Positions 1-43,228 of a stretch of DNA of 61,944 bases are shown piece by piece; the stretch's first letter is position 1, and each line of letters opens with the position of its first letter. The notes under the pieces were generated by a model that was given only the letters and a program-made list of their open reading frames with translations, did no database searches and had not been told where the DNA came from. The stretch covers positions 1-61,944 of the IMG/VR virus record IMGVR_UViG_3300032087_000824, one strand, 5' to 3'. The position numbers were made by a program, and so were the translations under genes. This DNA comes from a virus (lineage: Duplodnaviria > Caudoviricetes).

Positions 1-424
1 AATATTGTTCTGTTCCTGTAAATGTTAGACCACTAACTGGAACACTATCCAATGTTTGCCCACTAGCTGCCATAGTATATAGTAAATGAACGTGGTAAGA
101 ACTTTCTTCTCCACCATGAAAAGGGTCAACACCTTTACTATCAAAAAATCTTGATACATCATTTGTTTTATTGTTTCTTCTGTGTGCTGAATCTAAACCT
201 TGTCCACCGCTAAAATCTGACCTAGAAAATATTTGACCTATGTTAGTTGTAATATCTTCAGGGTTTTGTTTTAGGTTTATTTCTTGAGCAGGGAACTCTG
301 CAGTAGATATAGTCATCTGTCTGTTAGGTGCAATAGCAGCTCTAAATAATAAATCGTCTAAAGCTAAATCATAACCTTTTCTTTTAGGGTTAGTTACTTC
401 AGAGGTTAAAGGTACTCTAGGCAT
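1..424 (-). CDS. Tail (nozzle/tubular-B-like) protein, module A, truncated at window edge
   Basis: Not in ORF track. ATG at 424 overlaps the upstream TAA (TAATG). Translates MPRVPLTSEVTNPKRKGYDLALDDLLFRAAIAPNRQMTIST...FSGGQGLDSAHR..., clearly paralogous to 38094-40064 (MPRIPST...FTGGQGLDTAHR). Confidence 0.75.
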   Translation of the reverse strand, partial: MPRVPLTSEVTNPKRKGYDLALDDLLFRAAIAPNRQMTISTAEFPAQEINLKQNPEDITTNIGQIFSRSDFSGGQGLDSAHRRNNKTNDVSRFFDSKGVDPFHGGEESSYHVHLLYTMAASGQTLDSVPVSGLTFTGTEQY

Positions 425-1437
425 TAGGTATATGAAATCTTGTTAATACTTACTGGTTCTGGATACCTAGCTCTTAAATCCTTTCGTGCTTGTTGTATCA
501 ATGCTCTTTGATATTGTATTAAAGAGTTTCTAATTGACGATGCAGAGTTAACAGGAAAACTTTGTGCTTGCATAGATTGTGTAATATTCTCTGCAGTTGC
601 AGCAGGTATATCTCTACCTGCAATCATTTGTGCCGCTACACCTGCCATAACAATAGGTTCATATTCTGTTTCTAGTCCTATCTGTGCAAGTGTTGTATCT
701 TCTACATCTCCATCACCATCGTAATCTCTTACATCTAAAAACTTTTTCTTAAAAGTTATATACACTGTATGACCAGAAGCTACATTGTAGACCTGTACTG
801 CATTAACTTTATCTGGTCCATTTGTATATGTAATAGTTTGTGATACACCATCTGCATCATTGTAAGTAAATGGATTTGGTAAATCTATCAACTCTACTGC
901 TACTCCTTGAAAAGTAGTTCCTGTTTCATCTGAACCTGCAGAAAAGTCTGTGTACTGTGATATTGCTTTTATAGGTGCTATTAAGTAGTTATCATATGTA
1001 CCACTTAATGGTACGTATCCTACTTTAGCTGATACACTTTTAGTTTCTGTTGCAAACAATGTAGGATATAAATTATGTATTTGGTCTGATACTGCATCAA
1101 ATACAGTATTTCTTGGAAAGACAGGATTAATTCTCATCACGTCATTTACTAAGTGAGCAGCTAATGTTGTTCCTCTAAATGCACGTTTAACTGTTAATTG
1201 TTCTGCTGAAGTATTTAAAGCAGTAACTAACATCAACTCTCTGTTTACTTCTACTACAGCACCTGGTTCTAATAAATCTTCTTCTTCTGAAGTTAGATAG
1301 TCTGATTCGTATTCTACTGTTACATCAGTATCATCAGCATCCATACCACCTCTTAAAATAGAAAAAGATTGTATGTCGTCATTTGGCTCTAGGTACTCTC
1401 TGTAAACTCTATCTACTAAATTACCTATTGTACTCAT
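424..1437 (-). CDS. Putative head-tail adaptor / tail protein, module A
   Basis: 337 aa. Lies between major capsid and tail gene. Paralog of 40064-41059 (shared IGLETEYEPIVMAGVAAQ and QQARKDLRARYPEPV). Confidence 0.65.
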   Translation of the reverse strand: MSTIGNLVDRVYREYLEPNDDIQSFSILRGGMDADDTDVTVEYESDYLTSEEEDLLEPGAVVEVNRELMLVTALNTSAEQLTVKRAFRGTTLAAHLVNDVMRINPVFPRNTVFDAVSDQIHNLYPTLFATETKSVSAKVGYVPLSGTYDNYLIAPIKAISQYTDFSAGSDETGTTFQGVAVELIDLPNPFTYNDADGVSQTITYTNGPDKVNAVQVYNVASGHTVYITFKKKFLDVRDYDGDGDVEDTTLAQIGLETEYEPIVMAGVAAQMIAGRDIPAATAENITQSMQAQSFPVNSASSIRNSLIQYQRALIQQARKDLRARYPEPVSINKISYT

Positions 1438-1462
1438 ATCTCACCTATGATAGCACAAGAAA

Positions 1463-1486
1463 AGGGTGGAGGTGGAGTTCCACCCT
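1463..1486 (-). terminator. Hairpin after major capsid A (terminator/attenuator), followed by an extended -10 (TGCTATCAT)
   Basis: Stem AGGGTGGA/TCCACCCT, 8-nt loop, U-run on the minus strand. Counterpart at 41433-41456. Confidence 0.7.
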
Positions 1487-1501
1487 AATCTTGTAATTAA
1501 A

Positions 1502-2629
1502 TTAAGATACTGCTTGAATCTTGCAGTGATATGAAGGAGGTCCGAACTCGAATCCCATCTCCATATAAATTGCTTTACCAATTCTAGCGTTAGCATCTTG
1601 GTCTATGTCACGAACAAACACTGTTCCATATCCTGGGATATTTGTGAACACTGGTTGAATGTAAGCTAAGTCTAAGATGAATGAAGTATTGGCAGGCAAG
1701 ATATCAGGGTCAACAACCATCATTCCGATTGAACCGAATGGGGTTACGACTGTATCAATATCAAGACCTGCAACATTTCTATCTCTAGGAATGATTGCAC
1801 CTGTAATACCAACGTTACCTGCTATCAATTCTGTGTTAAGGTCCAATAATTGTTTTGGACTAACACATAATACAGGGTTACTCATTGGTGCGTGGTTGTC
1901 ATACATTCTCTTCAAAGCACCTGCTATTGCATCGAATGATAATACCTGGGTTGAACCTAAACCAGTACCAAGAGTGTCATTGTAGTAACAGTTACCACCA
2001 AGTGGATTAACTGCTGCTGCGTTGTTAGCGTTTTTGTTTAGTGAAATCCAAACATCAACACCATACATTTCTCTAGTTCCATCACCTGGGGTGACATTAG
2101 CACCGTCAGAGAAAGAACCATTGAATGCAAACCACTCAACTTCTCTTGCTACTTTTTCCATTGCTTTTTCCATTTGGAAAGCAAATTCATCTGCCACTGG
2201 ACTACCACCAAATAGTGCTAACTTGTCACCTGCTGTATTGCCGCCCTGTCCATCAGAAAAGTTAGCAATGTTTGCAGATAAGTCGAAAGGATTTTGGTTT
2301 TGTGTAGATGCTAAAGCTGTGTATGTCATTTGTACACCCTTGTGGAAAATCTGAGTCACATAAGTATATGCAGCTCTATCTCTTCCAAGATATTCTGTAG
2401 GTGTAGAACCTTCTTGTCCTTTAGTTGGTTCTGAATTAACTATTGCATTATCTTCTACTTGGACTTGCCAAAATGTAGAGTTTAATACTTTGCCGCCATT
2501 CAAACCGCCAACTGCGGATAATAAAGGTGTTCTTTGACCACCAACTTTAAACAATTCACCAGTGAAGTTATTAATTTGTTGGGCGTAGATAGTATCGCTA
2601 CCTGCACCACCAAGGCTTATGCTTGCCAT
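1502..2629 (-). CDS. Major capsid protein, module A (HK97 fold, SU10/DUF5309-like)
   Basis: 375 aa directly after scaffold, strong RBS. Motifs TQIFHKGVQMTYTA and QMEKAMEKVAREVEWFAFNG resemble this MCP family. Paralog of 41472-42560. Confidence 0.85.
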   Translation of the reverse strand: MASISLGGAGSDTIYAQQINNFTGELFKVGGQRTPLLSAVGGLNGGKVLNSTFWQVQVEDNAIVNSEPTKGQEGSTPTEYLGRDRAAYTYVTQIFHKGVQMTYTALASTQNQNPFDLSANIANFSDGQGGNTAGDKLALFGGSPVADEFAFQMEKAMEKVAREVEWFAFNGSFSDGANVTPGDGTREMYGVDVWISLNKNANNAAAVNPLGGNCYYNDTLGTGLGSTQVLSFDAIAGALKRMYDNHAPMSNPVLCVSPKQLLDLNTELIAGNVGITGAIIPRDRNVAGLDIDTVVTPFGSIGMMVVDPDILPANTSFILDLAYIQPVFTNIPGYGTVFVRDIDQDANARIGKAIYMEMGFEFGPPSYHCKIQAVS

Positions 2630-2652
2630 ATTTTATCTTCTCCTATAAATTT

Positions 2653-3132
2653 TTACTTATTTTGTTCTTTTAAAGTATCTAACATTCGCAGTTTTGCGTT
2701 GATAGAATCTTTAGTTTTTGTATTGGAATCTCTTACGAAGTTTAGAAACTCTTGACCTACGTCAACAGGTTCTGCATTTACACCAAGTTTATTAAGCTGC
2801 TCAACTCTTGATTGAGCCTCAACTACATTGTTAGTTACTTGAGAACTTGCACTCTGTTGTGTGGAACTACTAACTTCTCCAAACTCTCGAGCAACAAAAT
2901 CTTTTATAGCATCAACAGATATATCACCATCATAGAGTTTTGTAACAGCTTTACCTAATCCCTTATCTGCTTCTAGTCCTATTTGACTCAAAGCATTGGT
3001 CATAGCTTGTGCTTTGAATTGTTTATTCTCAGCTTTAAGCTTTTTATACTCTTCTCTAAGTTGTTTGATTCCATCTGTAGATTCATCTGCAACTTCTTCT
3101 GTAGTGTCTACTTGTTGTATATTTTCTTCCAT
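2653..3132 (-). CDS. Capsid scaffolding protein, module A
   Basis: Acidic, coiled-coil, immediately upstream of MCP. Start moved to MEENIQ (GGAG RBS). Paralog of 42575-43039 (LREEYKKLKAENK, GLEADKG). Confidence 0.7.
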   Translation of the reverse strand: MEENIQQVDTTEEVADESTDGIKQLREEYKKLKAENKQFKAQAMTNALSQIGLEADKGLGKAVTKLYDGDISVDAIKDFVAREFGEVSSSTQQSASSQVTNNVVEAQSRVEQLNKLGVNAEPVDVGQEFLNFVRDSNTKTKDSINAKLRMLDTLKEQNK

Positions 3133-3175
3133 TATTATCTCCATTTTCTCTAGCATATATTTATCCCATAGTATT

Positions 3176-3292
3176 AATCGCTAGGTAATTAAAGGGATTT
3201 ACACAAGGGTTTATGAATAACAGATAACACACCTTGGCAATGTTACCGAATCCCAGCCCTATATTTTGTGTGCCGAACCTGGCAGGCACTAC
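3176..3292 (-). ncRNA. Candidate structured cis-regulatory RNA in scaffold/MCP leader, copy A
   Basis: Non-coding, alignable with 43088-43210 with compensatory stems. Upstream TTGACA...TGCTATACT promoter-like sequence. Confidence 0.6.
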
Positions 3293-3308
3293 ATCTAGTA
3301 TAGCAGAA

Positions 3309-4361
3309 TTATTTTTCTGTCAAGCCAGTTACAGCACCTTCTTGTGTTTTTACTGCACCTAATTGTACTGCTGATTCTGATATATTTTGAGCTTGTATCG
3401 CTGCTAATTCTTGTGATGTTTCTAAGTTGCCTAAGTATTGTGCCTCTAGTATTTCCATTGATGTAGGAGCAGAATCTCTACGCTGCTGTCTTGCAACCCT
3501 AGCTGTGATTAAAGCTCTATCAACAGCAGCTTGAAATGTTCTCTGCGCTTCAGATACTTGTAAGCCTGCACCTACTAAACTTTCAATAGAAGTTCTACTA
3601 GCTTCAACTCCTGCAACTGTTTGATATTGATTACCAACTCTAGCTATATTTAATCTTCTATTTAAAACATTTGCATTTATTTCTGGGTCTATTATTAACG
3701 GTATTAATGCAGCTTCATCTAGCTCTATAACATCTCCTAACTCAGACGAATAGTATTCTTCATAAGCAGATAGTACACCTCTTTTTTGTTCTGGTGTTAA
3801 GTTGCTAAGTTGTTGTTCAGTAACAGAAAGTCTAGAAGCTATTTCGTCTGGTGAAACATTGTTAGATACAAGCTCAGGAAATATTGTATCAATAACTTGT
3901 GCGCCATATCCACCAATACCAAACTCATTGAAATGTATTAATACTGCTTCTTTATTCTGTAAGTATGTAGCTTCAGACATTCTAAGTGAGCCATCATCTC
4001 TTGTTATACCAGGAAATACTTTTTCATAACTATCACTAGACCTCATTCTTGCTAATGCAAATGTATCTTCACCGCTTTCTATGTATCCTGCAACATACTC
4101 GTCTATTAGTTTTTTACCTTCTACTGGTGCTAACTTAGTTAGCCAAGGCATTAATACTTGTGCTTGTTGTGGTGTAAACTGTACTGCAGTTTCATCTACA
4201 GGTTCTTGTGTACTCCAACCTTCATCTTGTGTTTTTATAGAAAGTTCAGACTTTTCTTCACCTTCTCTTCTGTAATACTGAGCAGTAGCAACAGCACCAT
4301 CTTTATATATTGTTACTTGCCTTCCGCCTTTAGGTGCATTCTTATCTACAAAAGCTGCCAT
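3309..4361 (-). CDS. Putative internal virion protein, module A
   Basis: 350 aa. Paralog of 43229-44422 (GYIES, NNVSP, IDP, C-terminal GAxxTQxGxVxGLTE). Confidence 0.55.
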   Translation of the reverse strand: MAAFVDKNAPKGGRQVTIYKDGAVATAQYYRREGEEKSELSIKTQDEGWSTQEPVDETAVQFTPQQAQVLMPWLTKLAPVEGKKLIDEYVAGYIESGEDTFALARMRSSDSYEKVFPGITRDDGSLRMSEATYLQNKEAVLIHFNEFGIGGYGAQVIDTIFPELVSNNVSPDEIASRLSVTEQQLSNLTPEQKRGVLSAYEEYYSSELGDVIELDEAALIPLIIDPEINANVLNRRLNIARVGNQYQTVAGVEASRTSIESLVGAGLQVSEAQRTFQAAVDRALITARVARQQRRDSAPTSMEILEAQYLGNLETSQELAAIQAQNISESAVQLGAVKTQEGAVTGLTEK

Positions 4362-5617
4362 TATATACCCCTTATCACATTACCACCTAAACTCCTATTC
4401 ATAGAAGAAGCAACTGTTCTTCCAAAATATTCGTTACCAGTTTCGTATGCTTTTTTTCTCATTGATTTACCTGCATCTTGAAAACCTAAACCTAATGTTT
4501 CTAAAAAATAAGTATCTGTTTCATCTGGAGAATCTCCAAATATAGAAGTATATAGTTGTTTGTATGGTCCAACCACTTGTCCATAGTTTAATCCTTTGCC
4601 AGAAAATCTTTCAAAGTATGGGTCACTATCAAACAAAGCTTGTAGCTTCATTTCAGCAGCATCTGTCTGGTCAGTAGATACTAGATAAGCTATTTCTTTT
4701 TTTGTATCTTCATCTAGTGTGTCATACTTTAGAACACCTAAATATCTTTGACCTAGTCTTTGTGCTTCTTTTGTTTTTCTAAAATCTAAAGTACCTAAGT
4801 CAAATGTTAAATTACCATCAACTTCCATTTCTATAATGTTTTTAAATGACAAGTACCTAGAATCTTCTGGTGCTAGTTCTTCTATACCTGTGTAATGTTT
4901 TACAAAGTCGTCAATATTAGCAGCATTTAAATATCCTTTTGTATATACCTCTATTAAGTTTTGATATCCATCAAAATTACTTTCACTAAAATCATCTACG
5001 TTTACACCTATCTTTGTAAGAACAGCATTTATTTCATCTGTCTTTACATCTCTAAGTTCTCTTAACCTAATGTTTGTATCGTAATCATTATTCTTTAAAC
5101 CACCAGCATTTATAAATTGTATTTGACCAACTGTCCAAGTAGATTTTAATTCTTTTAATCTTGGGTCATTCTCATCTATTGGTCTGCCCAACCACAAATG
5201 TTCTAACAATAATGACATACCTGGTGCGCCAGTTACATTACCTTCTTCATCTTTCTGTACTTCATAAAACCAAGGAGCGTAATCTTTATATAAATCTATA
5301 GTGGCTTCAAATGCTTCTGCTGGATTATATCCATCCATATCATCAAAGTTGCTAGATATGTATGTAGCACTTAAAGCTGTATGTCCTAATAAAACCCCTG
5401 GTGCTTCATATACAAACTCTGGTAGCTCTCTATCGTTGGTTAATCCGTGAGGCTTTACTGTACCTACATCATAAGATATATATACTTTTTCATCACCTTC
5501 TTCTGCTGTTAAGAAATCACCAGCATCATACAAGTAGTAATATCTTCCTGTATCTGCATCAAAGTAAATTAAATCTGGTGTAGGTTTATTAGAATATTTC
5601 CAGCTAGTTTCTGTCAT
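4361..5617 (-). CDS. Putative internal virion protein, module A
   Basis: 418 aa, acidic. C-terminus paralogous to 44423-45883 (LFDSDPxFExxSGKxLNYxQVVG, AYxTGNExF). Confidence 0.55.
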   Translation of the reverse strand: MTETSWKYSNKPTPDLIYFDADTGRYYYLYDAGDFLTAEEGDEKVYISYDVGTVKPHGLTNDRELPEFVYEAPGVLLGHTALSATYISSNFDDMDGYNPAEAFEATIDLYKDYAPWFYEVQKDEEGNVTGAPGMSLLLEHLWLGRPIDENDPRLKELKSTWTVGQIQFINAGGLKNNDYDTNIRLRELRDVKTDEINAVLTKIGVNVDDFSESNFDGYQNLIEVYTKGYLNAANIDDFVKHYTGIEELAPEDSRYLSFKNIIEMEVDGNLTFDLGTLDFRKTKEAQRLGQRYLGVLKYDTLDEDTKKEIAYLVSTDQTDAAEMKLQALFDSDPYFERFSGKGLNYGQVVGPYKQLYTSIFGDSPDETDTYFLETLGLGFQDAGKSMRKKAYETGNEYFGRTVASSMNRSLGGNVIRGI

Positions 5618-6327
5618 AGTGTGTATATCTTTTCTTTAAAATTATCTAATAACTTCATAGGTTTTCTAGGAAACCTAGTGCTTGGCACATTTGGTTCTTC
5701 TTCTTTTACAGGAGGTTCTTTGAAGTATCTACCGCTTTCTACTAATTCATCTACTGCGCTCGCATCTACTAGAGATTTGTTTCCATCTTTATCATACATA
5801 TAAGTTATTGTATCAGGTAAAGGATTCAATGTTTCCCCTTCATCTCGGTCTTTAGGACCTATAAATCCACCCATAACATTTGTCATAGCTGCTTCTTCTT
5901 TGTCTAATCTGTTCATAAACCAATCAGGAGGTGCTGTTCCCCTTTTATCTTCGTATGCTTTTTCTTGACTACTTCTAATACTTTTGATATGTCCTTCAGC
6001 TATTACATCTATAGTATCTCTTAATGCCCAAGGTCTATTAAAGTAAACCAAAGCCATATAATCAAACCTATCCTCATTTACTTTTAAATCTCTATTCTCA
6101 AGCATTTGCGATACATATTTTCTAGCTTCAGCTAAATCTTTACTTAAAATATCTATTGCTTGTTCTCTATCTATTACAGTGTCCTCATTGAATTTAAAAG
6201 TATCTGTTGCGTTTGTATGTCCAAAGCCAATAGTAAGAACACCGTTTTTGTCATAGTATGCTTTATCACTATAACCCTCAAGTTCTTCAACTACTTCTAT
6301 GATTGCTGGTGGAACTTCGTAATCCAT
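5614..6327 (-). CDS. GH24 (phage-type) lysozyme, probably virion-associated, module A
   Basis: EG-x7-D-x5-TIGFGH catalytic motif (EGYSDKAYYDKNGVLTIGFGH). Located among internal virion genes. Confidence 0.85.
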   Translation of the reverse strand: MDYEVPPAIIEVVEELEGYSDKAYYDKNGVLTIGFGHTNATDTFKFNEDTVIDREQAIDILSKDLAEARKYVSQMLENRDLKVNEDRFDYMALVYFNRPWALRDTIDVIAEGHIKSIRSSQEKAYEDKRGTAPPDWFMNRLDKEEAAMTNVMGGFIGPKDRDEGETLNPLPDTITYMYDKDGNKSLVDASAVDELVESGRYFKEPPVKEEEPNVPSTRFPRKPMKLLDNFKEKIYTL

Positions 6328-7718
6328 TATCTACTTAAACTCGCTATAGCGACACCAAGTCCTTGTTGGTACGCTTGTGCTTCTTTACCTTCATCAATAA
6401 GTGGTCTAAAATAATTATATACAAACTCATCTAGCCCTGTAGCAAATGCTGATGAAACATCATCATCTGACATTGCTGGTGGCAGTAAGTAATAATCTTG
6501 TTGTGTACCTGCAACTTGGTCTTGGTATGCCTGTGAAGCCATATCAACTCTAGCTTGTTCATAAACTCTTCTTGATTCTACATATGCAGCGCCTAATCTT
6601 TCTATTTCTCCATTAGCCCAATCTGCTATAACTTGATAATCTCTCATACTAGGATTTGCACCTATAGTTTCTCTAACTGTTTGATTAACATTAAATTTAA
6701 TAAATTCTGGATTTGCTTGTGCTATTAAAGCTGGTGCTGTAATAATAGGATTAGTATCTCTTAGTTGTACTTCTTCTATAATCTCTTCAAAATAGTTTCT
6801 CATAAATCCTAAAAATACACCTTCTTCTCCACCAGAAAGTAAATTAATTTCTCTTAAATCATTAACATCTAATCCATATTCAGGTTTAGTATTTAAATAA
6901 CTAAATGCAGATTCTAATGCTTCTACTGTTGCATCTTCTCCTGCTGTTCCTATTTCTCCAATAGTTCCTAATACATATGAGCCAGGTTGTAAGAATCCAG
7001 CTCTCATAAGTTTATCTTGTATGTTTGCTATTCTTCCTGGTTCTAATCCTGCTAAGAATGATGAAGCAATACCAAAGTTAAATACTGGTACAAGGTTTTG
7101 ATTCTTTGCGGCTTCCTTGTAATTTATTAATTGCAAATCATCTTGAAGTCCGTAATACTGCAACATACCTGATGCGTATCGTTCACCAAATGTATAACCT
7201 GGTCCTGCTGCTGTTTGGTCAGTAAAGTCTACAGTTTCTAATGCAGTAAGCAAAGCATCAGCATCACCTGTCTCTTTATATTTTTCCCAAGCTGCGTCTG
7301 CTAATCCTCTGTCTGTAACAGTAGGTTCAAACTCGTATTGTCTTTCTGTGAGATTTAATGCAGAAGCATACTCAGCATCAGCTTCTCTTTCCATATCGCT
7401 TTCATCTATATTTATAGTTATTTCACTAGGGTCTTGTCCTGTAATTCCTGATACAAATGCTGATGTAAGTGCTTTTCTTCGTTCTAAATCTTCTGATGTA
7501 GGTATAAGAACACTAACAAATTTTCTCATTGCTTTTGTGTCTGCACCTTTTTTAAGTAAAACAATTACATCTTCAACAACATTCTTAGGCATATCAGGTA
7601 ATGCTTTAAAAAACATACGTTGTAAATCTTCTAAATCAGCAATACCCTCACCAATAGCATCATAAATACTTCTTAATGTAAATCCTATTTTTTGATACTT
7701 TTGTTCTTCTCTATCCAT
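6327..7718 (-). CDS. Putative internal virion (ejection) protein, module A
   Basis: 463 aa. Paralog of 51836-53608 (YYGLxD, AGFLxPxSxVxG, TVxAxESA). Confidence 0.55.
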   Translation of the reverse strand: MDREEQKYQKIGFTLRSIYDAIGEGIADLEDLQRMFFKALPDMPKNVVEDVIVLLKKGADTKAMRKFVSVLIPTSEDLERRKALTSAFVSGITGQDPSEITINIDESDMEREADAEYASALNLTERQYEFEPTVTDRGLADAAWEKYKETGDADALLTALETVDFTDQTAAGPGYTFGERYASGMLQYYGLQDDLQLINYKEAAKNQNLVPVFNFGIASSFLAGLEPGRIANIQDKLMRAGFLQPGSYVLGTIGEIGTAGEDATVEALESAFSYLNTKPEYGLDVNDLREINLLSGGEEGVFLGFMRNYFEEIIEEVQLRDTNPIITAPALIAQANPEFIKFNVNQTVRETIGANPSMRDYQVIADWANGEIERLGAAYVESRRVYEQARVDMASQAYQDQVAGTQQDYYLLPPAMSDDDVSSAFATGLDEFVYNYFRPLIDEGKEAQAYQQGLGVAIASLSR

Positions 7719-10700
7719 TACGAGCCTCCGTATAGTGTTGTATCTACAAACTCTTCTTCAACTTCATACTTAAATAAGTCAAGATACACATAGTAAAAGT
7801 CTGGATACTCTGAGAATAATTGCTGTGCAAGTTGTCTTAGAGCTGTTCTTTGTCTTACTAATTCTTCTCTTTGTAATGATACATTACTTCCTAATACAAG
7901 TCTAGCTTCTGTTAATAACCTGTTTCTTTGTTCCATATATGCTATAGCACCTTGTACTGCAGGAAGTTGTTTTAGTTTCGTTGTTTTACCATCTGGTAAC
8001 TTTATGTTTGTTTCACCATCTTGTCTTAACATATCTTCAAATTCTCTAATCTTTGCTTCTACATTCATAGAAGTAGGTATTGTAGAACTTACACCATAAC
8101 CTGGATACTCTTGTATCAATGCATTTCTAACAGCAGTAAGCATTTCAAACTTATTCTTACTTGGAACATTAGCGTATGCAGGTGTATCAAATAACAATCT
8201 TCTTTGATATTCGTAAGCTAATCTACCTTGTGCATTTCTAATAGCTGCAACATACTCATCTTCATCTATATCTACCCTATCTCTTTCTGCAAATGCATTA
8301 GCCCAAGAAGTAAAATCAAACTCATCTAGTGGGTTATCAGGGAATATATAATATCCAATGTTAGGATATCTATCTAATACTTCTTGGTTTTCTCTAGTAA
8401 ACCTACCACCTACTTCTGTATATGAACGTTTCTGTATTTCTTTTGATTTAGAAGTTAACAATGCAGTAGGGTCTATACCAAATTGATTTACAAATTCAGT
8501 AGTAGCAGCTAACTGGTCGCCTTTATATTTAGCTAATATTCTATAATATGCGTCTGCATATATAGACATACCAAAGTAATAACCATCTGGGTCACTCTCT
8601 TGAAACTCAGCAGGGTCAAGATATAATGCACCACCAGGTGTAGTTTCTATTTCATATCTTATTACTGCACCTGTAGGAGCTGCGAATTGTACAGCAGCCC
8701 TAATCCAAGACAATCTAGTAGCAATCTCTTCTGCTTTTTTCATAGCATCTTGTTGTTTTGCTCTAGTAGAATCATCATACAAACCTGTAGTAATTAACAT
8801 TCTTAATACATCTTTGTAGGTATTAGCATAAGTTCTTTTTATTTCAGGTGTACTTGCACCAGATATAGAAAATACTTTCTTTAACCAAGAAGGTATCATT
8901 GCATCTAAATAAGTATAAGGACTTACTGGAGAGCCTTCTTCTCTACCATATGGAAAGAATATCTTATCTAGTAAAGCTGTATCTGGTAACAACTTAGCTG
9001 CAGGTATTGCAACTAATGGACCTAAACCAGGAACAGGATTACCAGCAACCATATTTAAAGAAGAAGAATATCCCTCTAGTTTTATCCTGACATCTGGTGC
9101 TTTCATAGCATCTCCAGTAATAGGATTTGTCATTAGTCTATTTTCTTCTTCTCCAAACATATAATTTGTAAGTAACTCTGTACCAGGGAAAAAGAACATT
9201 TCTTCTCCTGACATTTCATCTGTATGAAAGAAACCTTCCTCTCCTTCTTCTCCTGAACCTCTAGCACCTTGAATTACACGTTGTACTTTACGACCTGCTA
9301 ATAGTTTTTGTTGATTAATTAATCTTGACCAAGTACCTATAATCTCTTGATAAACTTCTGCGAATGGAAAAGCTAGTCTTAACATATCAGATACAACGTG
9401 TCTTTTATTTAAATCATATAGTAATCTTTTTGTTTCAGACAATGCATAGGCTTTAGCTGCGTCATCTAATTCACTAATGTTTTCTACACCAAGTATTCTT
9501 GCATCACCATCTCTGATAGGTTTTGTACCTTTAAGTATTCTTGCAGTTTCACCAGAGTTCTTTACCCACTTAGAAGCTTTCATATTAGCCATACTTATAA
9601 TTTCATTCTTCAATGCTTCGTCATAATATGCACCATTCTCTTCTATAAATCTCCAGTAATATTGTCTGAATGCTGATGACCTAGATAGTCTGTTAGTAGG
9701 AACTGCCATCAATGTTGTAAACAAATTCTCTAACACTTGGTCATACTTACTAATAGTTTGTGCATTTATATCATAAGTTGATTTCTTCATAGTATGATAA
9801 GCACCATAAATTTCTCTATCTTTATCTATTTGTCTTATGTGTCCTTTGTAAGTTCTGTGGTCATCTAGTGTTTGGTTTCTACCAAATGTAATTTCTATAG
9901 GATTGCCGTCAGGGTCAACACCTATTTTTAATCTAGTTGGTTTACCAGCAGGTATCATATCTCTAGTAGCTTGTATTCTTTTACCAAAAGCTATATGTCT
10001 TATTAATTCATCATCTCCTGGCTTTATAATATCGTGAACAATAATACTTGTAGGAGATGTTCTTGTTACAGCTTTACCAGTAGAACCATCTGACCTATGT
10101 AATACTTTAAATGTTCCATCTTCAAAAACTTCTTTTGTTTCAAAGTGTCCACCAGTTTTGTAATGTATTCTTGCAACAATACCATCAATATAAGCATCTG
10201 CAGCTTTTCTGTCTGTAAGCATTCTTATTTTTTGATATTTACCTATTTCATCTGAACCATAAGAGTAAGATGTTCTCCAATCAGATAAATCGCCATCCCA
10301 AAATCTATCTTTAATTTCTTTAATAGCATCTTCAGCAGATACAGTTTCATCAAGCACAGCTTCAGTTTGTTCTTCTTTTAACGCTTTAACTTTTCTTTGT
10401 AAGTAATTATTTATTCTTGGAGCTTTTTCTTCTAGTTGTGCTAAACCTGTACCTAAACCATCTTCAGGTAATACAACTACTTTACCAAGACCTCTTGCTT
10501 CATCTATCTTTTGAAATGCTTCATCAATAGCTTCTACAGCTACATCATAATCATCATCACTAAAAAACTTTCTAGCAGAATTTTTTGTTGGAACTCCTAT
10601 TACATTTGGCTCATCTCTAATAATTGCTTGTCCTGCTTTGCCTGTTCTAGCTAAATTATCTCCAAATACAAACATTTTGTTAGGATTGTTTTTTACAATA

Positions 10701-13700
10701 GCTGGTGTAAATCTCTTCATAGAGATTAACTCACCTCTAAATGTTCCATTAAATCCTGTAAGTTTATAAGCTATCTCAGCAGCTATAGGGTCATCACCTA
10801 ACTGTATAACTTCTCCTGCTGCACCACCATAAAAAGTATCATCTGTTTTATTAACTTCTAAAAAAGAACCTTGTCTAGAAAATGATTGATTAGGGTCAAG
10901 TACGCCTCCGTGTGATGTAGTCATTGCACCACCGTGTTCTATACCTTCTCCTATAGTATTGCCCTCTATATCGTATACGCCTTTTGCTATAAGTCTTTCT
11001 GCAAATTCATCTTCATCATAACCTCTAACTCTATAAGCTATTTTTCTTTGGTCTTTACCCATTATCCAAGCAAATGCAGATAATGGATGACTAAATACAT
11101 TGTCTAAATTATCCATCCACATACGAATTTGTTCTTCACCAACAACCCTAGAAGTCCAAGCAGCTCTTAAAAGTATTGCTGGCTTCCAAGCTTTATTCAT
11201 ATATGAATCGCCTATCATTCCTAAGTAACCTGAAGTTAACTCTCTAACTATTGCATCTTCTTCATTCTTTGTTAATTTAAATCTTTTTCTAGCATTTCTA
11301 ACCATAAGCTCTGCAGTTTCTGACACGCTTTTGTCATCTTTAATAGTAAGTTCATAAAGTCTAGATACTGGTTTAGCTAGTTCTTTTTCAAATTGAGATG
11401 CTATAACTTCATCTTCTTGTAAACCTGCAAGTCTTTGTGGTATTAATTTACCCTTACCTGCTGCTCTCATCCAAAACTCTCTTGCTGGAGAATATACTCT
11501 TAAAAATAATCTTGCATCAGGAAGTGGTATTGCGTCAGTACCTAAATACTCTGCAATAAGTTGAGCTGTAGGTCTGCCTGATATCTTTGCAATGTTTTCA
11601 ATTTGTGCTTCATTAAATAACTGTTCACTAATTCTTTCCATTGTTTCATAGTTCTGTACTTTGTTTTCAAAGAAGCTAAGTATTTGTTGTGGTGTTACCT
11701 TTGCATTCTGTATTACTTTAGAACCTTTTTCTGTTTTCTTAAATGGAGCTTTACTTTTAATAAACAATGGTTTAAGAACACTTTCTAGGACATCTCTGTC
11801 TTTAAATCCAGCAGGTCCTGCAATATTAACTGTTTTATTTCTAAGAAGCTTTTGTGCTTCTACAATAAAATCATCTGTAAGATTTGGATTTTCTAAATCA
11901 ATAAGTATCAAAGGTTTGTTAAGTGTCTTTTTAAAAACACCTGTTTCATACTTGTCTATATTTTTTGCAACTTCATCTCTCCACTCTGGTCCTACCCATC
12001 TGTTTCTAGATGCGTACAATATAGTTTTAGCAGTACCACCACCGCCTTGTGTAAGTTTGCTTTTTCTAAATGCAACTATTGTTACATCATTGTTATCTAC
12101 ATTTTGAGTAGTTCTAAATTTATAATCTCTTGGTCTAGGTTTCATAGCACCTATATCTCCACCATTTAATATATTTAATTCGTCTTGTAGTTTTATATAA
12201 TTAGCAGCATCATTGCCTTGATATAATATTTGATTGCTAATTTTTGATAATTGTTTTTTTGTATTCATTAATTTTACTTGTGCATCTGTAAGTAACTCAT
12301 CTGCATTATTTAAAAATTCTCTATATCCTCTTTCATCAAAACTTTCAAATATAATTGTTCTTTGTATTTTTATATCTCCAGTTGGTTTTGGATAAGCACC
12401 TTCTTCTATAAATTCTCTTACATTAAAATCAGGACTTAGACCAGTATCTGTTTCATTTTTACCAAATCTTTTTACTGGATATCTATAATTGGTTGTTTCA
12501 ATTTTAGTTCCGCCACCTTCTTTAGGAAGTTTTACTTTACGTTGATAAACAGCATCATATTGAATTGTTTTATTTTTTACAAACCTAAGTATTGCTGATT
12601 TAAATTGTAAGTCATCAACAATTTCTCTAACACTTCTGTCATCACCTTTTGTAACATCTTTACCTTTAACTGTAGTTTGTTTTATTCTTTTGCCTTGTTG
12701 GTCTACACCTTGATAATTCTTACCTTCTAACTCTACATTAATTCTAAATAATTCTTGTTCAGCAAGTTCAGCATTTCTTAAAGCCTGTTGCAACTGTTCG
12801 TCTGTATATTTTTCAGGAAGAATACCTTTATCTACCTTCTTTAATTTTTCTGCTTCAACTTTTTTTGTTAATGTGTTTATTTCGTTTTCTAAAACAATTT
12901 GTCTTTTAAGCAGTGAAGCATCGCCACCACCTTCAGTAACTTGTTTTATATATTCTTCTAAAGCTTTTACTGCATCTTCTCTTTTAGAAAAATTAATTAA
13001 TCCACCTTTACCTTTTATTTCTAATGCAATCCTGTCAGCTATTTCTGTTTCAGTTAAATCTCCAAATTTACCTTTATTAAGTATTTGATAATATCTTGCT
13101 TTTTCACTTGCAGTTAATCTTTCTTCTTTAAATGTATCTTTAAATTTAAGACCTTTAGTGTTTTGTGTTATTTTTTGTTCTAACCTAGCCAGGCTATTTT
13201 CAGTGCTTTTAATAGCGTCATCTACTGAATCTTGTACATTGTATTTTAATAACTGACCTGCACTGCTGTCATATCTACCATCTTTAATTGTACGTTGTGT
13301 AAGACCAGGCATACCGACACCACCAGTTTCAATACCTATATCATCTGCTATTTGTAAACCTAAAAAGTCAACACCCTCTTGACCACCACTACTTACTTTC
13401 TTTACAAGCACTTCCATTTCTGGGTCTAGCCTGTCTATAGTAGCTTCTGGTAATATTTCTTCTAGAAAATCATCTTTAAGAAAATTCATAGAAGGAACAT
13501 TTAAATCAGCAATAATATTATCTGGACCAGCTAATTCATAATCTATACGAACTGCTTCACCGTTTTTAAAATAATTTTTATTTTGAATTTGAGATTTGTA
13601 CCATTCGTATGTATATCCTTCTTTCCTAGCAATTTCTCTAGCCCTATCTTCTAATTTAGGATTTGTAAATAAATCTTTTGGGAGTGTTTCAACATTATTT

Positions 13701-15814
13701 ACACGAACTAAAACTTTTCTATTTGTATTTTGGTCAAGCATTTGCCTAATTTGACCTACTTCAGGTGCGCCATTATATCCTGCTAATGACCTAGTTGTAG
13801 ATGTTCTTTTACCCTGCATAATAAGTTCCATAGTGTTTGTGTCTTTATTTGAAAAAGGTGTATTTGTTTTTTTAACAGTAAAGTTCATTGGTATAGGTTT
13901 ACCTTCACCAACTATGTTTTCTATTTGTCCAAGTTCTGACTTAGCATCTCTAATTAATCTTCTTCTGCCACCTACTTCTACTTTTTTAACTCCAGCTCTT
14001 TCAGCAACTCTTTCTACAATCTCTAAAGCTTTTTCTAGTTCAAACTGTTGAGATAGTATTGCATTACCTTTACTATCTACAATATCTAGTTTTTGTCCTT
14101 GCCAAAACTCCTCTGACATATTTGTTCTAAAGTATTTTCTAGTTTCATCAATAGAACCCATAAACTTTTTAATACCTTTAGATAATTCTGGAGGTAAATC
14201 TAACGCATCAAACTTCTGTGCTATATGTGTAAATACTCCATCATCACCACCTATGACATCAAGTACTAAAGATAACTTAGCTAAGTTTGCAGGTCTAGGG
14301 TCATATGGTGTTTGTGCATCAAATGGTATATCTGCTAATGCAGTAATAGCAGGGTCTTCCATACCATCTGCAATTCTATCTAAAGCTTTTATAGCAATTT
14401 CATCATCTACTTTTGCAAATTTCATCCACGCTTTTAATTCAAAAAATGTTGTATTTAAATCATTAGCGTGCAATCTTGGTGCAGGAAACTCTTGAAACAA
14501 TCTACCCCATTTAGAATCTTGATTGTTTAATTTCATAGCAGTTCTAAATCCACCTGCTCCATAATCTGAACCATAGTATGCTTTGCCTGCTGCTCTAGAA
14601 AACTTACCTTTAAATATTAAAGAGTTAGAATCTAGACGTTTGTTAAATGCTAAATTGTCTTGTGTGGTTTCTATAAGTATTTTTTGTACTTCTGATGCAT
14701 TATCTGCATCTCTAAGTTGTCTGCCGATAATAGCACCATTATCTAAATTTTTAAGTTGACCTTTAGTTAATATATCTATTTCATCATATGTACTAGCTCT
14801 TACAAATAAATCTGCAATATCTCTACCTGTTTGTGATGTATAAAATTCTTTTGCGGTAGGCTGATGAACTGTTGCTCTAACAGCTTTATTTATAAGACCT
14901 GGTTTATTATTAGGTGTAAATGTTCTTACTGCTTTACCTGCTCTAGATATACCTAAACCTAAATAAGTTGAAGGGTCTGTAAATATAGTATAAGCACCAT
15001 CAATAACACCTGACATAAATTTAAATGCTTTACTTCCTGGTTCAAATATTTCTACAGCAGCTACACGACCAGGAGATAATTTAACAGTACCTTTTCTACC
15101 TTGATAGCTTAATGCTGCTTTTTCTCTATCTTGTATTGTAGGTTGTGATATAGGTGTTCCTAACTGTTCTTGTATAGATTCTCTTACAATGTTTGGGTCT
15201 GCACCTCTACCTACTAATTCTTTATAAACTTCTGTATCTTCAGCTAATGTAGAGTTTCCAAAGTAACCTTCACCTAAATTAACTTTGTTACCTTTTTTTA
15301 TTTCTCTAAAAGCTCTACCTGCTAGTGTAGGTCCTGTTTCTTCAAATGTATTTTTTAATTCTGTATGAAAGTCAGGATTAATTGCTGCTAATGCTGTACC
15401 TATACCAGAAAAAAACAATAATGGGTTTTGTTGTTTTTTAGAGTAATATCTCATACCTGCAGTACCAAATCTTTTTACAAACTGGCTAGCAGATTCCATA
15501 CCTACAAAAGCACCTCTAATTGCACCCCTACCAGATGCTTTTATACTTTCCCACCAACTTCTTTCTTTTTCCATATATGAATTTACGATAGATGTAAACT
15601 CAGGACTATCTTTAGTAAGACCAACCATAGCACTTGCAACTTGTACATCTGTAGGTAAGAACCCATATTCTTGAGATATACCTATTAAGTTTTGTGCTAT
15701 ATCGTTTTGAGAAAAATAATTTCTAAGTTCTTGTGCTTGGTTTTTTCTTTGTTTTACAAACTCTGAATCAAGAGCGTCTTGATACGGAGATGGAAAACTC
15801 CACTCCCACGCCAT
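7718..15814 (-). CDS. Giant polyvalent internal virion/ejection protein, module A (ASCH, split cpYpsA/SLOG, Macro-like/DUF7831-like domains)
   Basis: 2698 aa. ASCH GKRTSTTR..EG; SLOG SGGQEGVD...RTTQNVDNNDVT...VNIAGP; FVFGDNL..GQAIIR..PNVIGVPTK domain. Paralog of 53608-60459. Confidence 0.7.
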   Translation of the reverse strand: MAWEWSFPSPYQDALDSEFVKQRKNQAQELRNYFSQNDIAQNLIGISQEYGFLPTDVQVASAMVGLTKDSPEFTSIVNSYMEKERSWWESIKASGRGAIRGAFVGMESASQFVKRFGTAGMRYYSKKQQNPLLFFSGIGTALAAINPDFHTELKNTFEETGPTLAGRAFREIKKGNKVNLGEGYFGNSTLAEDTEVYKELVGRGADPNIVRESIQEQLGTPISQPTIQDREKAALSYQGRKGTVKLSPGRVAAVEIFEPGSKAFKFMSGVIDGAYTIFTDPSTYLGLGISRAGKAVRTFTPNNKPGLINKAVRATVHQPTAKEFYTSQTGRDIADLFVRASTYDEIDILTKGQLKNLDNGAIIGRQLRDADNASEVQKILIETTQDNLAFNKRLDSNSLIFKGKFSRAAGKAYYGSDYGAGGFRTAMKLNNQDSKWGRLFQEFPAPRLHANDLNTTFFELKAWMKFAKVDDEIAIKALDRIADGMEDPAITALADIPFDAQTPYDPRPANLAKLSLVLDVIGGDDGVFTHIAQKFDALDLPPELSKGIKKFMGSIDETRKYFRTNMSEEFWQGQKLDIVDSKGNAILSQQFELEKALEIVERVAERAGVKKVEVGGRRRLIRDAKSELGQIENIVGEGKPIPMNFTVKKTNTPFSNKDTNTMELIMQGKRTSTTRSLAGYNGAPEVGQIRQMLDQNTNRKVLVRVNNVETLPKDLFTNPKLEDRAREIARKEGYTYEWYKSQIQNKNYFKNGEAVRIDYELAGPDNIIADLNVPSMNFLKDDFLEEILPEATIDRLDPEMEVLVKKVSSGGQEGVDFLGLQIADDIGIETGGVGMPGLTQRTIKDGRYDSSAGQLLKYNVQDSVDDAIKSTENSLARLEQKITQNTKGLKFKDTFKEERLTASEKARYYQILNKGKFGDLTETEIADRIALEIKGKGGLINFSKREDAVKALEEYIKQVTEGGGDASLLKRQIVLENEINTLTKKVEAEKLKKVDKGILPEKYTDEQLQQALRNAELAEQELFRINVELEGKNYQGVDQQGKRIKQTTVKGKDVTKGDDRSVREIVDDLQFKSAILRFVKNKTIQYDAVYQRKVKLPKEGGGTKIETTNYRYPVKRFGKNETDTGLSPDFNVREFIEEGAYPKPTGDIKIQRTIIFESFDERGYREFLNNADELLTDAQVKLMNTKKQLSKISNQILYQGNDAANYIKLQDELNILNGGDIGAMKPRPRDYKFRTTQNVDNNDVTIVAFRKSKLTQGGGGTAKTILYASRNRWVGPEWRDEVAKNIDKYETGVFKKTLNKPLILIDLENPNLTDDFIVEAQKLLRNKTVNIAGPAGFKDRDVLESVLKPLFIKSKAPFKKTEKGSKVIQNAKVTPQQILSFFENKVQNYETMERISEQLFNEAQIENIAKISGRPTAQLIAEYLGTDAIPLPDARLFLRVYSPAREFWMRAAGKGKLIPQRLAGLQEDEVIASQFEKELAKPVSRLYELTIKDDKSVSETAELMVRNARKRFKLTKNEEDAIVRELTSGYLGMIGDSYMNKAWKPAILLRAAWTSRVVGEEQIRMWMDNLDNVFSHPLSAFAWIMGKDQRKIAYRVRGYDEDEFAERLIAKGVYDIEGNTIGEGIEHGGAMTTSHGGVLDPNQSFSRQGSFLEVNKTDDTFYGGAAGEVIQLGDDPIAAEIAYKLTGFNGTFRGELISMKRFTPAIVKNNPNKMFVFGDNLARTGKAGQAIIRDEPNVIGVPTKNSARKFFSDDDYDVAVEAIDEAFQKIDEARGLGKVVVLPEDGLGTGLAQLEEKAPRINNYLQRKVKALKEEQTEAVLDETVSAEDAIKEIKDRFWDGDLSDWRTSYSYGSDEIGKYQKIRMLTDRKAADAYIDGIVARIHYKTGGHFETKEVFEDGTFKVLHRSDGSTGKAVTRTSPTSIIVHDIIKPGDDELIRHIAFGKRIQATRDMIPAGKPTRLKIGVDPDGNPIEITFGRNQTLDDHRTYKGHIRQIDKDREIYGAYHTMKKSTYDINAQTISKYDQVLENLFTTLMAVPTNRLSRSSAFRQYYWRFIEENGAYYDEALKNEIISMANMKASKWVKNSGETARILKGTKPIRDGDARILGVENISELDDAAKAYALSETKRLLYDLNKRHVVSDMLRLAFPFAEVYQEIIGTWSRLINQQKLLAGRKVQRVIQGARGSGEEGEEGFFHTDEMSGEEMFFFPGTELLTNYMFGEEENRLMTNPITGDAMKAPDVRIKLEGYSSSLNMVAGNPVPGLGPLVAIPAAKLLPDTALLDKIFFPYGREEGSPVSPYTYLDAMIPSWLKKVFSISGASTPEIKRTYANTYKDVLRMLITTGLYDDSTRAKQQDAMKKAEEIATRLSWIRAAVQFAAPTGAVIRYEIETTPGGALYLDPAEFQESDPDGYYFGMSIYADAYYRILAKYKGDQLAATTEFVNQFGIDPTALLTSKSKEIQKRSYTEVGGRFTRENQEVLDRYPNIGYYIFPDNPLDEFDFTSWANAFAERDRVDIDEDEYVAAIRNAQGRLAYEYQRRLLFDTPAYANVPSKNKFEMLTAVRNALIQEYPGYGVSSTIPTSMNVEAKIREFEDMLRQDGETNIKLPDGKTTKLKQLPAVQGAIAYMEQRNRLLTEARLVLGSNVSLQREELVRQRTALRQLAQQLFSEYPDFYYVYLDLFKYEVEEEFVDTTLYGGS

Positions 15815-16141
15815 TTAAGTAACTCCATCATCCATTAGAGCTAATATATCTGAACTTGGTAGTACAGCATACATTTGCCTTAGTATAAAGTTTTTATCCA
15901 TTTGCAAACTAGAACCAAATTGATTTATATTATTTTGTGCTACTGATTCAAATGGTCTTTCGGTAGGTCTATTTAAAGGAAGTGCATCTATTCTTGGAAC
16001 AGGCACAGGTGCTTGTTCTTGCACAGGTTGTACATTAGTTTGTTCTTCTTTAAACATTTCTGCACCACCTTGTTGTTCTAGTAATTCTTTAGAATCACCA
16101 TAAGATTCAGATGCATATTTTCTTTTTGCTTGTCTAGCCAT
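15815..16141 (-). CDS. Small structural-module protein, module A
   Basis: Start moved to MARQAKRK (108 aa, RBS GGAG). Paralog of 60467-60793 (ILxxMYxVLPS). Confidence 0.6.
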   Translation of the reverse strand: MARQAKRKYASESYGDSKELLEQQGGAEMFKEEQTNVQPVQEQAPVPVPRIDALPLNRPTERPFESVAQNNINQFGSSLQMDKNFILRQMYAVLPSSDILALMDDGVT

Positions 16142-16352
16142 AATTTTCTCCATAATCAAAATCATCAGGAACAATTAAAATATCTATTCTTCCTACCATA
16201 GGAATATAAGCTACTGTCATAATGTCAATAATTTTATCTAGTTGAAACCGTTTATTATTAAGTAATTCAGAATTAGCTTCCCACATAGGTTGTTCTTCTA
16301 CTGTATAATTTTGTGCAATAATTTTTGCAAACTCTTGATTTATATCAGGCAC
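16134..16352 (-). CDS. Small protein after portal, module A
   Basis: 72 aa. Paralog of 60795-60959 (EFAxIIAxN, EQPM, GRIDI). Confidence 0.6.
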   Translation of the reverse strand: MPDINQEFAKIIAQNYTVEEQPMWEANSELLNNKRFQLDKIIDIMTVAYIPMVGRIDILIVPDDFDYGENYG

Positions 16353-19998: not shown

Positions 19999-20261
19999 TT
20001 TACTTTATCAGCCCAATAGGCTGCAGACATCTTACCCTTCTTTATATTTTTAGCGTGTCTAGCTTTAAAAGATTTACGTTTAGCTTTAGACTTAGCGTCT
20101 TGTTTTTTACCTGCAGTTTTAGCACCTTGTTCACCAAATCTAATCATTTTTATTTTGCTACCTTCTTTAGCTAAAACAACGTGTGATTTAGTAGCGTGCT
20201 TAGGTGTACGTTTAGGTTTATTGTAACCTGAAAAACGTTCTCCACGATATTCAATAGACAT
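19992..20261 (-). CDS. Small basic protein
   Basis: 89 aa, Lys-rich (FSGYNKPKRTP, IRFG, SAAYWA). Resembles small proteins common in marine phages. Confidence 0.7.
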   Translation of the reverse strand: MSIEYRGERFSGYNKPKRTPKHATKSHVVLAKEGSKIKMIRFGEQGAKTAGKKQDAKSKAKRKSFKARHAKNIKKGKMSAAYWADKVKW

Positions 20262-41432: not shown

Positions 41433-41456
41433 AGGGGAGAGGTGGAGTTCTCCCCT
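41433..41456 (-). terminator. Hairpin after major capsid B, followed by extended -10 (TGCTAAGAT)
   Basis: AGGGGAGA/TCTCCCCT stem, loop identical to that at 1471-1478. Confidence 0.7.
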
Positions 41457-43210: not shown

Positions 43211-43228
43211 TATATATGGTACTACCTT

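Follow-up and report, generated by a model that had tools for sequence, protein, structure and literature searches.

A row of pseudoknots in the predicted mRNA leader of scaffold-like and major capsid genes in uncultured phages

Structured leaders of phage head genes have barely been described, although their products are the most abundant proteins of an infection and have to be made in fixed ratios. Here we report a chain of consecutive H-type pseudoknots (PK) directly before the genes of a scaffold-like protein and the major capsid protein in an IMG/VR virus record, IMGVR_UViG_3300032087_000824. The whole record of 61,944 bp was analysed and is called the window below. The fold recurs in relatives that fall into three sequence classes, and its helices covary in each of them. 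It forms an unusually well-supported case, with a defined multi-pseudoknot fold, three classes that serve as a natural series of compensatory mutations, and a link to the type of scaffold gene.

Genes and features of the window

The window carries two head-gene modules, A and B, which lie about 40 kb apart and have the same gene order; the head genes near the leader are all on the minus strand (Table 1). In each module, a gap separates an upstream gene from a scaffold-like gene, which is followed by the gene of the major capsid protein; a tail-like gene comes after the capsid gene of module A. The proteins of the two modules are 66% (capsid), 49% (scaffold) and 33% (upstream gene) identical, and the two gaps can be aligned over their whole length, with many invariant blocks. 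A profile search of the window returned these two copies of the leader only.

We call the 159-amino-acid (aa) protein scaffold-like: its acidic composition, its size and the place of its gene immediately ahead of that of the capsid all suggest a scaffold. Searches gave no Pfam family above the curated cut-off and no relative of solved structure (best E-value 0.21), and its only assignment is phrog_7813.

Table 1. Coordinates of the features of the two modules in the window. SD, Shine-Dalgarno sequence; nt, nucleotides; P1, first stem of PK0; helices are written as RNA.
Module	Feature	Position	Strand	Details
A	Upstream gene	3309-4361	-	350 aa; followed by a 176-nt gap
A	Promoter-like site (sigma-70-like)	3297-3323	-	TTGACA (3318-3323), 15-nt spacer, TGnTATACT (TATACT 3297-3302)
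A	PK0	3253-3289	-	P1 GUGCC/GGCAC (3285-3289 with 3270-3274); loop CCAG (3279-3282) with CUGG (3253-3256)
A	PK1	3204-3248	-	Stem CGGUAACAU/GUGUUAUC.G (3240-3248 with 3221-3230); loop CAAGG (3232-3236) with CCUUG (3204-3208)
A	PK2	3148-3198	-	Stem AUCCC/GGGAU (3194-3198 with 3163-3167); loop CCUAGC (3180-3185) with GCUAG.G (3148-3154)
A	SD and start codon	3130-3142	-	GGAG 3139-3142; ATG 3130-3132; start conserved in the alignment of A, B and relatives
A	Scaffold-like gene	2653-3132	-	159 aa; phrog_7813, function not annotated
A	Major capsid protein gene	1502-2629	-	Pfam SU10_MCP, E-value 5.7e-39
A	Terminator-like hairpin	1463-1486	-	Right after the capsid stop codon; stem covaries, loop CUCCACC conserved
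B	Upstream gene	43229-44422	-	Followed by a gap
B	Promoter-like site	43216-43243	-	TTGACA (43238-43243), 16-nt spacer, TACCAT; 10 of 12 matches
B	PK0	43171-43207	-	P1 CUGCG/CGCAG (43203-43207 with 43188-43192); loop GUGA (43197-43200) with UCAC (43171-43174)
B	PK1	43121-43164	-	Stem 43156-43164 with 43137-43146; loop CAAGG (43148-43152) with CCUUG (43121-43125)
B	PK2	43060-43111	-	Stem ACCC/GGGU (43108-43111 with 43076-43079); loop CCAAGC (43092-43097) with GCUUG.G (43060-43066)
B	SD and start codon	43037-43053	-	AGGAG 43049-43053; start codon 43037-43039
B	Scaffold-like gene	42575-43039	-	
B	Capsid gene	41472-42560	-	
B	Terminator-like hairpin	41433-41456	-	After the capsid stop codon; AGGGGAGA...UCUCCCCU

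Fold of the leader

Read on the mRNA strand, the leaders of module A (3148-3289) and module B (43060-43207) form three consecutive H-type pseudoknots, PK0, PK1 and PK2; each arises when a hairpin loop pairs with bases that lie between a few and about a dozen positions 3' of its own stem. PK0 of module A holds an invariant AUAGGG (3257-3262), and its PK2 ends 5 nt before the SD. When A and B alone were aligned, 8 of the 31 pairs drawn by RNAalifold had already changed on both sides.

A structured RNA had been proposed for positions 3176-3292 in an earlier reading of this DNA (the original prediction). That interval does hold structure and is too short, since the fold continues to 3148 in A and to 43060 in B. 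Every sequence feature that it listed occurs on the mRNA strand, among them the hairpin GUGCC/GGCAC in A against CUGCG/CGCAG in B, with both loops ending in GUUC, the stem UAACA/UGUUA against CAGAC/GUCUG and the conserved AAUUACCxAGCGAUU. The proposed pseudoknot CAAGG/CCUUG occurs in both copies, and its pairing covaries within class 1 and between the classes described below. P1, the stem of PK1 and the loop pairing of PK1 had thus been seen; the pseudoknots made by the loop of P1 and by the AAUUACCxAGCGAUU loop had been missed. The sequence of the proposed AGGG...CCCU element is there too, and its pairing found no support: AGGG is compatible, in 98-100% of cells, with CCCU of either the 3' strand of PK1 or the 5' strand of PK2, but these pairs never change on both sides, and a shift by one column leaves the pairing just as good.

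Relatives and sequence classes

A capsid-based scan of IMG/VR yielded 77 loci (L001-L077), of which 75 have a scaffold-like open reading frame (ORF) directly before the capsid gene and the other two lack room for one. Together with A and B, their gaps gave 69 distinct sequences, which fell into class 1 (n = 33), class 2 (n = 34) and two outliers. The set of relatives was extended by two scans with short core patterns and then by profile searches, to 122 loci with full-length leaders in class 1 (59 distinct) and 118 in class 2 (65 distinct). A scan with the capsid protein of one outlier uncovered a third class, of which 48 distinct leaders were aligned. A fourth type is represented by L057 alone, with no further relative of its scaffold type in IMG/VR; judged by eye, its leader would accommodate pseudoknots, and as a single sequence it was left out of the counts. 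Leaders are 140-190 nt long across the family.

Of the 216 matches to the short patterns with enough room, 59 had no scaffold homologue downstream. Of these, 36 were fully flanked and were set aside as chance hits to a pattern of 15-16 nt in unrelated coding contexts; the rest had too little flank. Profile searches took the place of these scans.

Classes 1 and 2 have three pseudoknots and class 3 has four. In PK0, P1 closes a loop of 10 nt, the middle of which pairs just 3' of an A-rich linker. In class 1 this pairing occurs as GCAG/CUGC, ACGA/UCGU, GUGA/UCAC, CCAG/CUGG, ACAG/CUGU and GCGA/UCGC; all four pairs have changed on both sides, and 97.5% of the cells are paired. The 9-bp stem of PK1 in class 1 exists in 28 variants, nearly all of them fully paired, with eight of the nine pairs changed on both sides. 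The loop of PK1 pairs as CAAGG/CCUUG, CGAGG/CCUUG or UAAGG/CCUUA in class 1, CUACU/AGUAG in class 2, and CUACG/CGUAG or CUGCG/CGCAG in class 3.

In PK2 of class 1, the stem AUCCC/GGGAU or AUCCU/AGGAU encloses the conserved AAUUACCxAGCGAUU, whose pairing reads CCUAGC/GCUAG.G, CCUGGC/GCCAGG or, in B, CCAAGC/GCUUGG. The five stems of PK2 in class 2 (AGAGG/CCUCU, AGUGG/CCACU, AGAGA/UCUCU, AGGGG/CCCCU and AAGGG/CCCUU) are each paired in all five positions, and the loop UCAUAC pairs with GUAUGA or GUGUGA. Class 3 has an extra middle pseudoknot (PKm), with the stem GACUUAU/AUAAGUC and the loop pairing GCUACC with GGUAGC, in variants such as GUUACCC/GGGUAAC; its PK2 pairings (CUAUG/CAUAG, CACAG/CUGUG, CACGG/CCGUG) end one base before GGAGG. 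Part of class 2 (e.g. L021 and L023; columns 120-146) has an additional GAAA-loop hairpin between PK1 and PK2 (GAGUG-GAAA-CACUC or GGGUG-GAAA-CACUC), which is absent from other members.

Covariation

The larger alignments bear out the covarying stems of the original prediction. In class 1, 34 pairs (1004 cells) were paired in 96.7% of cells, compared with 30.4-47.2% for slid partners; 18 pairs had changed on both sides, and the covariation score was 0.352 (shuffle mean 0.177). The corresponding values for class 2 were 39 pairs, 1200 cells, 93.0% paired, 33.4-46.2% for slid partners, 12 pairs changed on both sides and a score of 0.245 (shuffle mean 0.110). Class 3 gave 50 pairs, 2358 cells, 97.5%, 30.6-39.2%, 18 pairs and 0.151 (shuffle mean 0.076). 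None of 500 shuffles reached the score in any of the three classes; for class 2, 10 of 500 shuffles had at least as many pairs with changes on both sides. As shuffling takes no account of relatedness, the comparison with slid partners, which is clear-cut, is the fairer control.

The helices that join a loop to its downstream segment, which make PK0, PK1 and PK2 in the three classes and PKm in class 3 H-type pseudoknots, were paired in 76.6-100% of cells, each with double-sided changes in at least one class. P1, the PK1 stem and the PK2 loop helix CCUAGC/GCUAG.G were also recovered unaided by RNAalifold, a program that is unable to draw pseudoknots. Two local weaknesses should be noted: the loop pairing of PK1 has only two double-change rows inside class 1, and one subgroup of class 2 is misregistered by one column in PK2. 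G-U cells, summed from the per-pair tables, number 45, 59 and 141 in classes 1, 2 and 3; the folded strand is the mRNA strand, because conserved G-U pairs would mismatch on the other.

Several conserved 7-mers of the loops have complements in the downstream scaffold and capsid coding region in 55-100% of the sequences. Both sides are merely conserved, without covariation, and this long-range pairing was treated as chance.

One family across the classes

Plain profile searches did not link class 1 to class 2. The class-1 covariance model matches 18 of 25 class-3 loci at E-values of at most 0.1 (best 1.8e-5), in register from the -10 element through PK1, and only 2 of 18 class-2 loci, at non-significant E-values of 0.57-0.97. 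The profiles of classes 2 and 3 match each other in register over the promoter, PK0 and PK1, i.e. the first ~110 positions (best E-value 1.3e-5). The pseudoknots have a common unit design. At its foot the stem carries CGG, and YCUG, with a single bulged base, closes it; next come a short first loop that has GC as its end, a second helix of 5-6 bp, and a third loop of 10-13 nt that turns A-rich. Outside the helix ends, almost no nucleotides are conserved across the three classes. The three classes share one architecture, and these comparisons join them in one family.

Predicted transcription unit

The leader seems to belong to a unit that consists of a promoter, the leader, the scaffold-like gene, the major capsid gene and a terminator-like hairpin, and that has the look of a self-contained cassette from which the two main head proteins would be expressed. 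As the original prediction had stated, TTGACA lies within the last codons of the upstream gene in both modules. All 115 aligned leaders have a -10-like hexamer in the same alignment columns. Of the 33 leaders of class 1, 23 carry a perfect TTGACA, which is weaker in the other leaders, and most spacers measure 14-15 nt. P1 follows 7-10 nt behind the -10 hexamer, at or beside the expected start of the transcript.

At the other end, the distance from the last covarying helix to the SD is 5-7 nt in class 1, 3 nt in class 2 and 1 nt in class 3. The array of pseudoknots thus occupies the stretch that begins near the predicted start of the transcript and stops 1-7 nt short of the SD, which is itself largely unpaired.

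Among the 56 relatives whose capsid gene is complete and followed by 90 nt of sequence, 50 have a hairpin with a T-rich tail after this gene. Its stem varies as AGGGUGGA/UCCACCCU, UGGGAGUAG/CUGCUCCCA and AGGGGAGA/UCUCCCCU. The loop CUCCACC is complementary to the SD-like sequences GGUGGAG or UGGAG. Neither leader contains an intrinsic terminator or attenuator (a G+C-rich hairpin followed by a U run); the sole terminator-like site in each module is that behind the capsid gene.

A semi-palindrome overlaps the -10 element and the predicted start (3288-3302, minus strand, in the window). It reads ACTAnATATAGT in class 1 (alignment columns 1-15) and ATAGCTTTAGCTAT in part of class 2 (columns 7-20). 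It might serve a dimeric regulator as operator, or represent a second -10 element in inverted orientation.

Contigs from RNA libraries cover the capsid gene, the scaffold gene and the leader, the last (3175-3277) by a contig of 117 nt; they come mostly from relatives, and such libraries can hold DNA, so they attest presence only. Three marine metatranscriptome runs gave no cover on 3319-4400, the upstream gene, which is also the most divergent part, and an RNA-labelled "viral metagenome" run covers it at low depth; we claim no transcript boundary from these data.

Leader class and scaffold gene

The genes of 52 phages with complete capsid and scaffold genes were compared. Scaffold proteins are on average 67-69% identical within a leader class (minimum 39.9%) and at most 36.9% identical between classes. 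The capsid proteins of classes 1 and 2 are on average 85.6% and up to 96.8% identical, and identity falls to 60% inside class 1; for the upstream gene it ranges from 23 to 99% within a class. From these patterns it follows that the leader and the scaffold gene have been exchanged as one block against both neighbours, which fits a functional tie between the two. Among L001-L077 the mosaicism is such that capsids up to 96.8% identical stand alongside scaffold-like proteins about 27% identical and leaders of different classes.

All 71 scaffold-like proteins that were considered are acidic (isoelectric point 4.39-5.02). Their most basic window of 25 residues has a net charge of +2 to +5, and there is no strongly basic patch. 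Searches against Pfam, PHROG and relatives of solved structure found no RNA- or nucleic-acid-binding domain.

Database and literature searches

Rfam 15 had no match at the gathering score in the whole window or in 11 loci of classes 1-4, in agreement with the original prediction, in which the motif was not recognised. When the two leaders of the window and one leader each of classes 2 and 3 were scanned permissively, matches reached only 12-16 bits, with thresholds at 41-80, and several lay on the opposite strand. ARAGORN found no genes for transfer RNA or transfer-messenger RNA (tmRNA) in the window.

Our literature searches returned no description of this leader. A catalogue of 8495 candidate structured RNA motifs of 29-151 nt has been mined from IMG/VR and names motifs upstream of capsid and GP32 genes (PMC10690425, 2023). 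This leader is not described in its main text, and four core motif strings are absent from the tables searched; its alignments and one spreadsheet lay outside the search, and parts of the leader may already be listed there under a number. The same source, in the parts consulted, indicates that the T4 gene 32 leader likewise has no Rfam model (PMC10690425). Structured mRNA leaders as such are already known, and this one is unusual for its chain of three to four pseudoknots.

Possible function

With a little more confidence than doubt, we favour a cis-acting 5' leader whose row of pseudoknots protects the 5' end of the mRNA and sets the translation of the scaffold gene, possibly with a feedback linked to that gene. 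PK0 would tie up the 5' end, and the compact array would shield a very highly expressed late message from decay that depends on that end. PK2, directly 5' of the ribosome-binding site and on the 30S platform side of the SD, would set the efficiency of initiation on the scaffold gene, and the two together would set mRNA life and initiation rate. Since the leader class is inherited with the type of scaffold gene, some class-specific partner of the leader is likely; this might be the scaffold gene product, its mRNA, or tertiary contacts of the fold itself.

Several findings weigh against this protective and translational role. The nested folding energy of the single sequences is not better than that of shuffles (z = +1.42 for A and +0.45 for B), so the evidence for the fold is comparative and not thermodynamic. 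PK1 shows no variation in 74 distinct class-2 rows, and class-specific invariant loops, e.g. UUUAAUUACC.AGCGAUU in class 1, are not needed by a generic stabiliser; a specific partner is therefore probably missing from the account given above. A weak helix drawn by RNAalifold in class 1 (CUUUA with UGGAG), with almost no double changes, would cover the SD, so that a free SD is not certain. The promoter function, the start site and the transcript itself are predictions from sequence, and the joint inheritance of leader and scaffold gene could be plain linkage by adjacency.

A doubtful but serious alternative is an autogenous operator, in which unassembled scaffold would bind the array of its own class and repress translation of the scaffold-capsid mRNA or destabilise it, coupling synthesis to assembly. 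The leader class tracks the scaffold type and is uncoupled from capsid and upstream gene, the invariant loops of each class point to a class-specific partner, and PK2 abuts the SD in every class. The scaffold of phage P22 is reportedly autoregulated post-transcriptionally. The uniformly acidic character of the 71 scaffold-like proteins, however, speaks against simple direct binding, no RNA-binding domain was found in them, adjacency alone can explain the co-inheritance, and their identity as scaffolds is itself putative. Scaffold autoregulation, one of the roles suggested in the original prediction, may draw on the agreement of leader class with scaffold type and has the acidic proteins against it; a second suggestion, an RNA that takes part in assembly, is neither supported nor excluded.

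A bolder proposal, which we put forward only tentatively, is that the pseudoknot chain represents a new class of mRNA operator in phages, which matches the scaffold type encoded behind it and senses free scaffold or contacts the scaffold message, and that the knotted 5' end is a bacterial counterpart of exonuclease-resistant viral RNAs. If the operator reading were true, it would tie the production of the two head proteins made in the largest amounts to the assembly of the capsid and would give the long-known post-transcriptional autoregulation of scaffold a defined RNA element. Either a feedback operator or a shield of the 5' end would explain how head-protein output is set in a widespread group of uncultured marine phages, and would offer compact, portable RNA parts for the control of mRNA stability and translation.

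It is improbable that the leader acts in trans, as a decoy or sponge for an assembly cofactor or a host factor, after being cleaved from the message or by building up as a stable RNA resistant to nucleases. The compact multi-pseudoknot fold and the 117-nt RNA-library contig, as a sign of presence only, would suit such an RNA, but no terminator or processing signal lies between PK2 and the SD, and the element occurs in one copy per genome, always fused to the start of the scaffold gene. Marginally less probable still is a put-like processive antiterminator, i.e. a nascent RNA that modifies the polymerase to read through downstream terminators. The leader is promoter-proximal, structured and conserved, and heads a late unit; the only conserved terminator-like hairpin, however, sits right behind the capsid gene, as if ending the unit, and an array that reaches the SD at a fixed short distance fits translation better. 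The put RNAs of phage HK022 consist of two plain stem-loops and are not known to form pseudoknots.

A metabolite riboswitch built on a pseudoknot, like those for preQ1, SAM-II and guanidine-III, is very improbable. H-type pseudoknots do lie beside the SD, and the SAM-II model gave a sub-threshold match (15.5 bits, where the gathering score is 44), albeit on the opposite strand; no Rfam riboswitch, however, was found at threshold, a common ligand pocket is unlikely with almost no cross-class conservation outside the helix ends, and there is no obvious metabolite link for head genes. As to a riboswitch that masks the SD, the SD lies 3' of the last covarying helix in every class, and the classes share almost no loop sequence. 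Least probable of all is a signal at the DNA level (an operator, packaging site or origin). The semi-palindrome at the -10 element and start could be cited for it; this covers only the first about 15 nt, however, the pseudoknot pairings covary, and the conserved G-U pairs, of which there are many, would turn into A-C mismatches on the other strand or in a DNA cruciform.

Nature of the record and possible host

A switch that chooses between the two modules, as also suggested in the original prediction, is unlikely, given that the modules are collinear homologues about 40 kb apart and that the motif occurs once in nearly all listed contigs. In an all-against-all comparison of window positions 1-20000 with 38000-61944, the portal proteins were 80%, the capsid proteins 62% and the tail proteins 62% identical, and a giant protein matched in three blocks of 30-43%. 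Plus-strand early genes sit between the modules, and the layout is exactly what one and a half rounds of a circular map of ~40 kb would give if they passed through two different relatives. Most simply, the record would consist of two related phage genomes of ~40 kb joined head to tail. The same two-module layout occurs in two other IMG/VR contigs (52.6 and 52.9 kb); among the 80 rows listed, the class-1 motif is found twice in one contig (52.6 kb) and once in every other, and most of the listed relatives have contigs of 47 kb or shorter. The two-module records are either assembly chimeras or real concatenates.

The structural modules also contain giant ORFs of 2698, 1673 and 2283 aa (7718-15814, 45883-50904 and 53608-60459, minus strand). 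The searches run gave no family assignment for their proteins; those of 2698 and 2283 aa are homologous in three blocks.

A DNA search for cultured relatives found none. The best match of the capsid protein among 50,697 phage records was 29.5% identical, in mycobacteriophages, and the matches of the capsid gene include phages Mendokysei and Doucette. Propionibacterium phage Doucette (L309), a distant relative, has a gap of 258 nt (1588-1845) before the gene that precedes its major head gene. In 185,579 species genomes, the only matches were two contigs of 54 and 58 kb (L306 and L307) in one metagenome-assembled genome labelled Actinomycetota bacterium, one with a class-3 and the other with a class-1 leader. 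This label and the fact that the nearest cultured relatives of the capsid protein are actinophages (at most 29.5% identity) give a weak hint of an actinobacterial host. Neither WhiB nor any other host marker was found among 19 further proteins of the window.

Comparison with known systems

The closest known systems resemble the present leader in some respects only. One is the autogenous translational operator of T4 gene 32, a phage mRNA whose 5' leader likewise holds an H-type pseudoknot, before the ribosome-binding site of a protein needed in stoichiometric amounts. The T4 leader consists of a single small pseudoknot and, after it, an unstructured A/U-rich stretch, and its regulator is a protein that binds single-stranded DNA. 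Here, by contrast, three or four pseudoknots fill the whole leader, and the downstream gene encodes an acidic, scaffold-like protein in which no nucleic-acid-binding domain was found.

The operators of Escherichia coli rpsO (S15) and of the alpha operon (S4) are pseudoknots that include the SD or the start codon and are bound by ribosomal proteins. They share with the phage leaders the position at the ribosome-binding region and provide a model for a folded RNA on the 30S platform that tunes or traps initiation; in the phage leaders the last helix stops 1-7 nt short of the SD, and the array is of far greater length.

The gene 10 unit of phage T7, with its phage-polymerase promoter, simple 5' hairpin, capsid gene and terminator, resembles the present unit as a dedicated cassette for high expression of a head protein, with a structure at the 5' end and a terminator just behind the capsid gene. 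It differs from the host-type promoter and the pseudoknot leader of 140-190 nt seen here. Consecutive pseudoknots are otherwise familiar from the upstream pseudoknot domain in the 3' untranslated region of tobacco mosaic virus and from PK2-PK4 of tmRNA, where several H-type pseudoknots likewise follow one another head to tail, but in another position (a 3' untranslated region or a stable RNA), in other organisms and in other roles.

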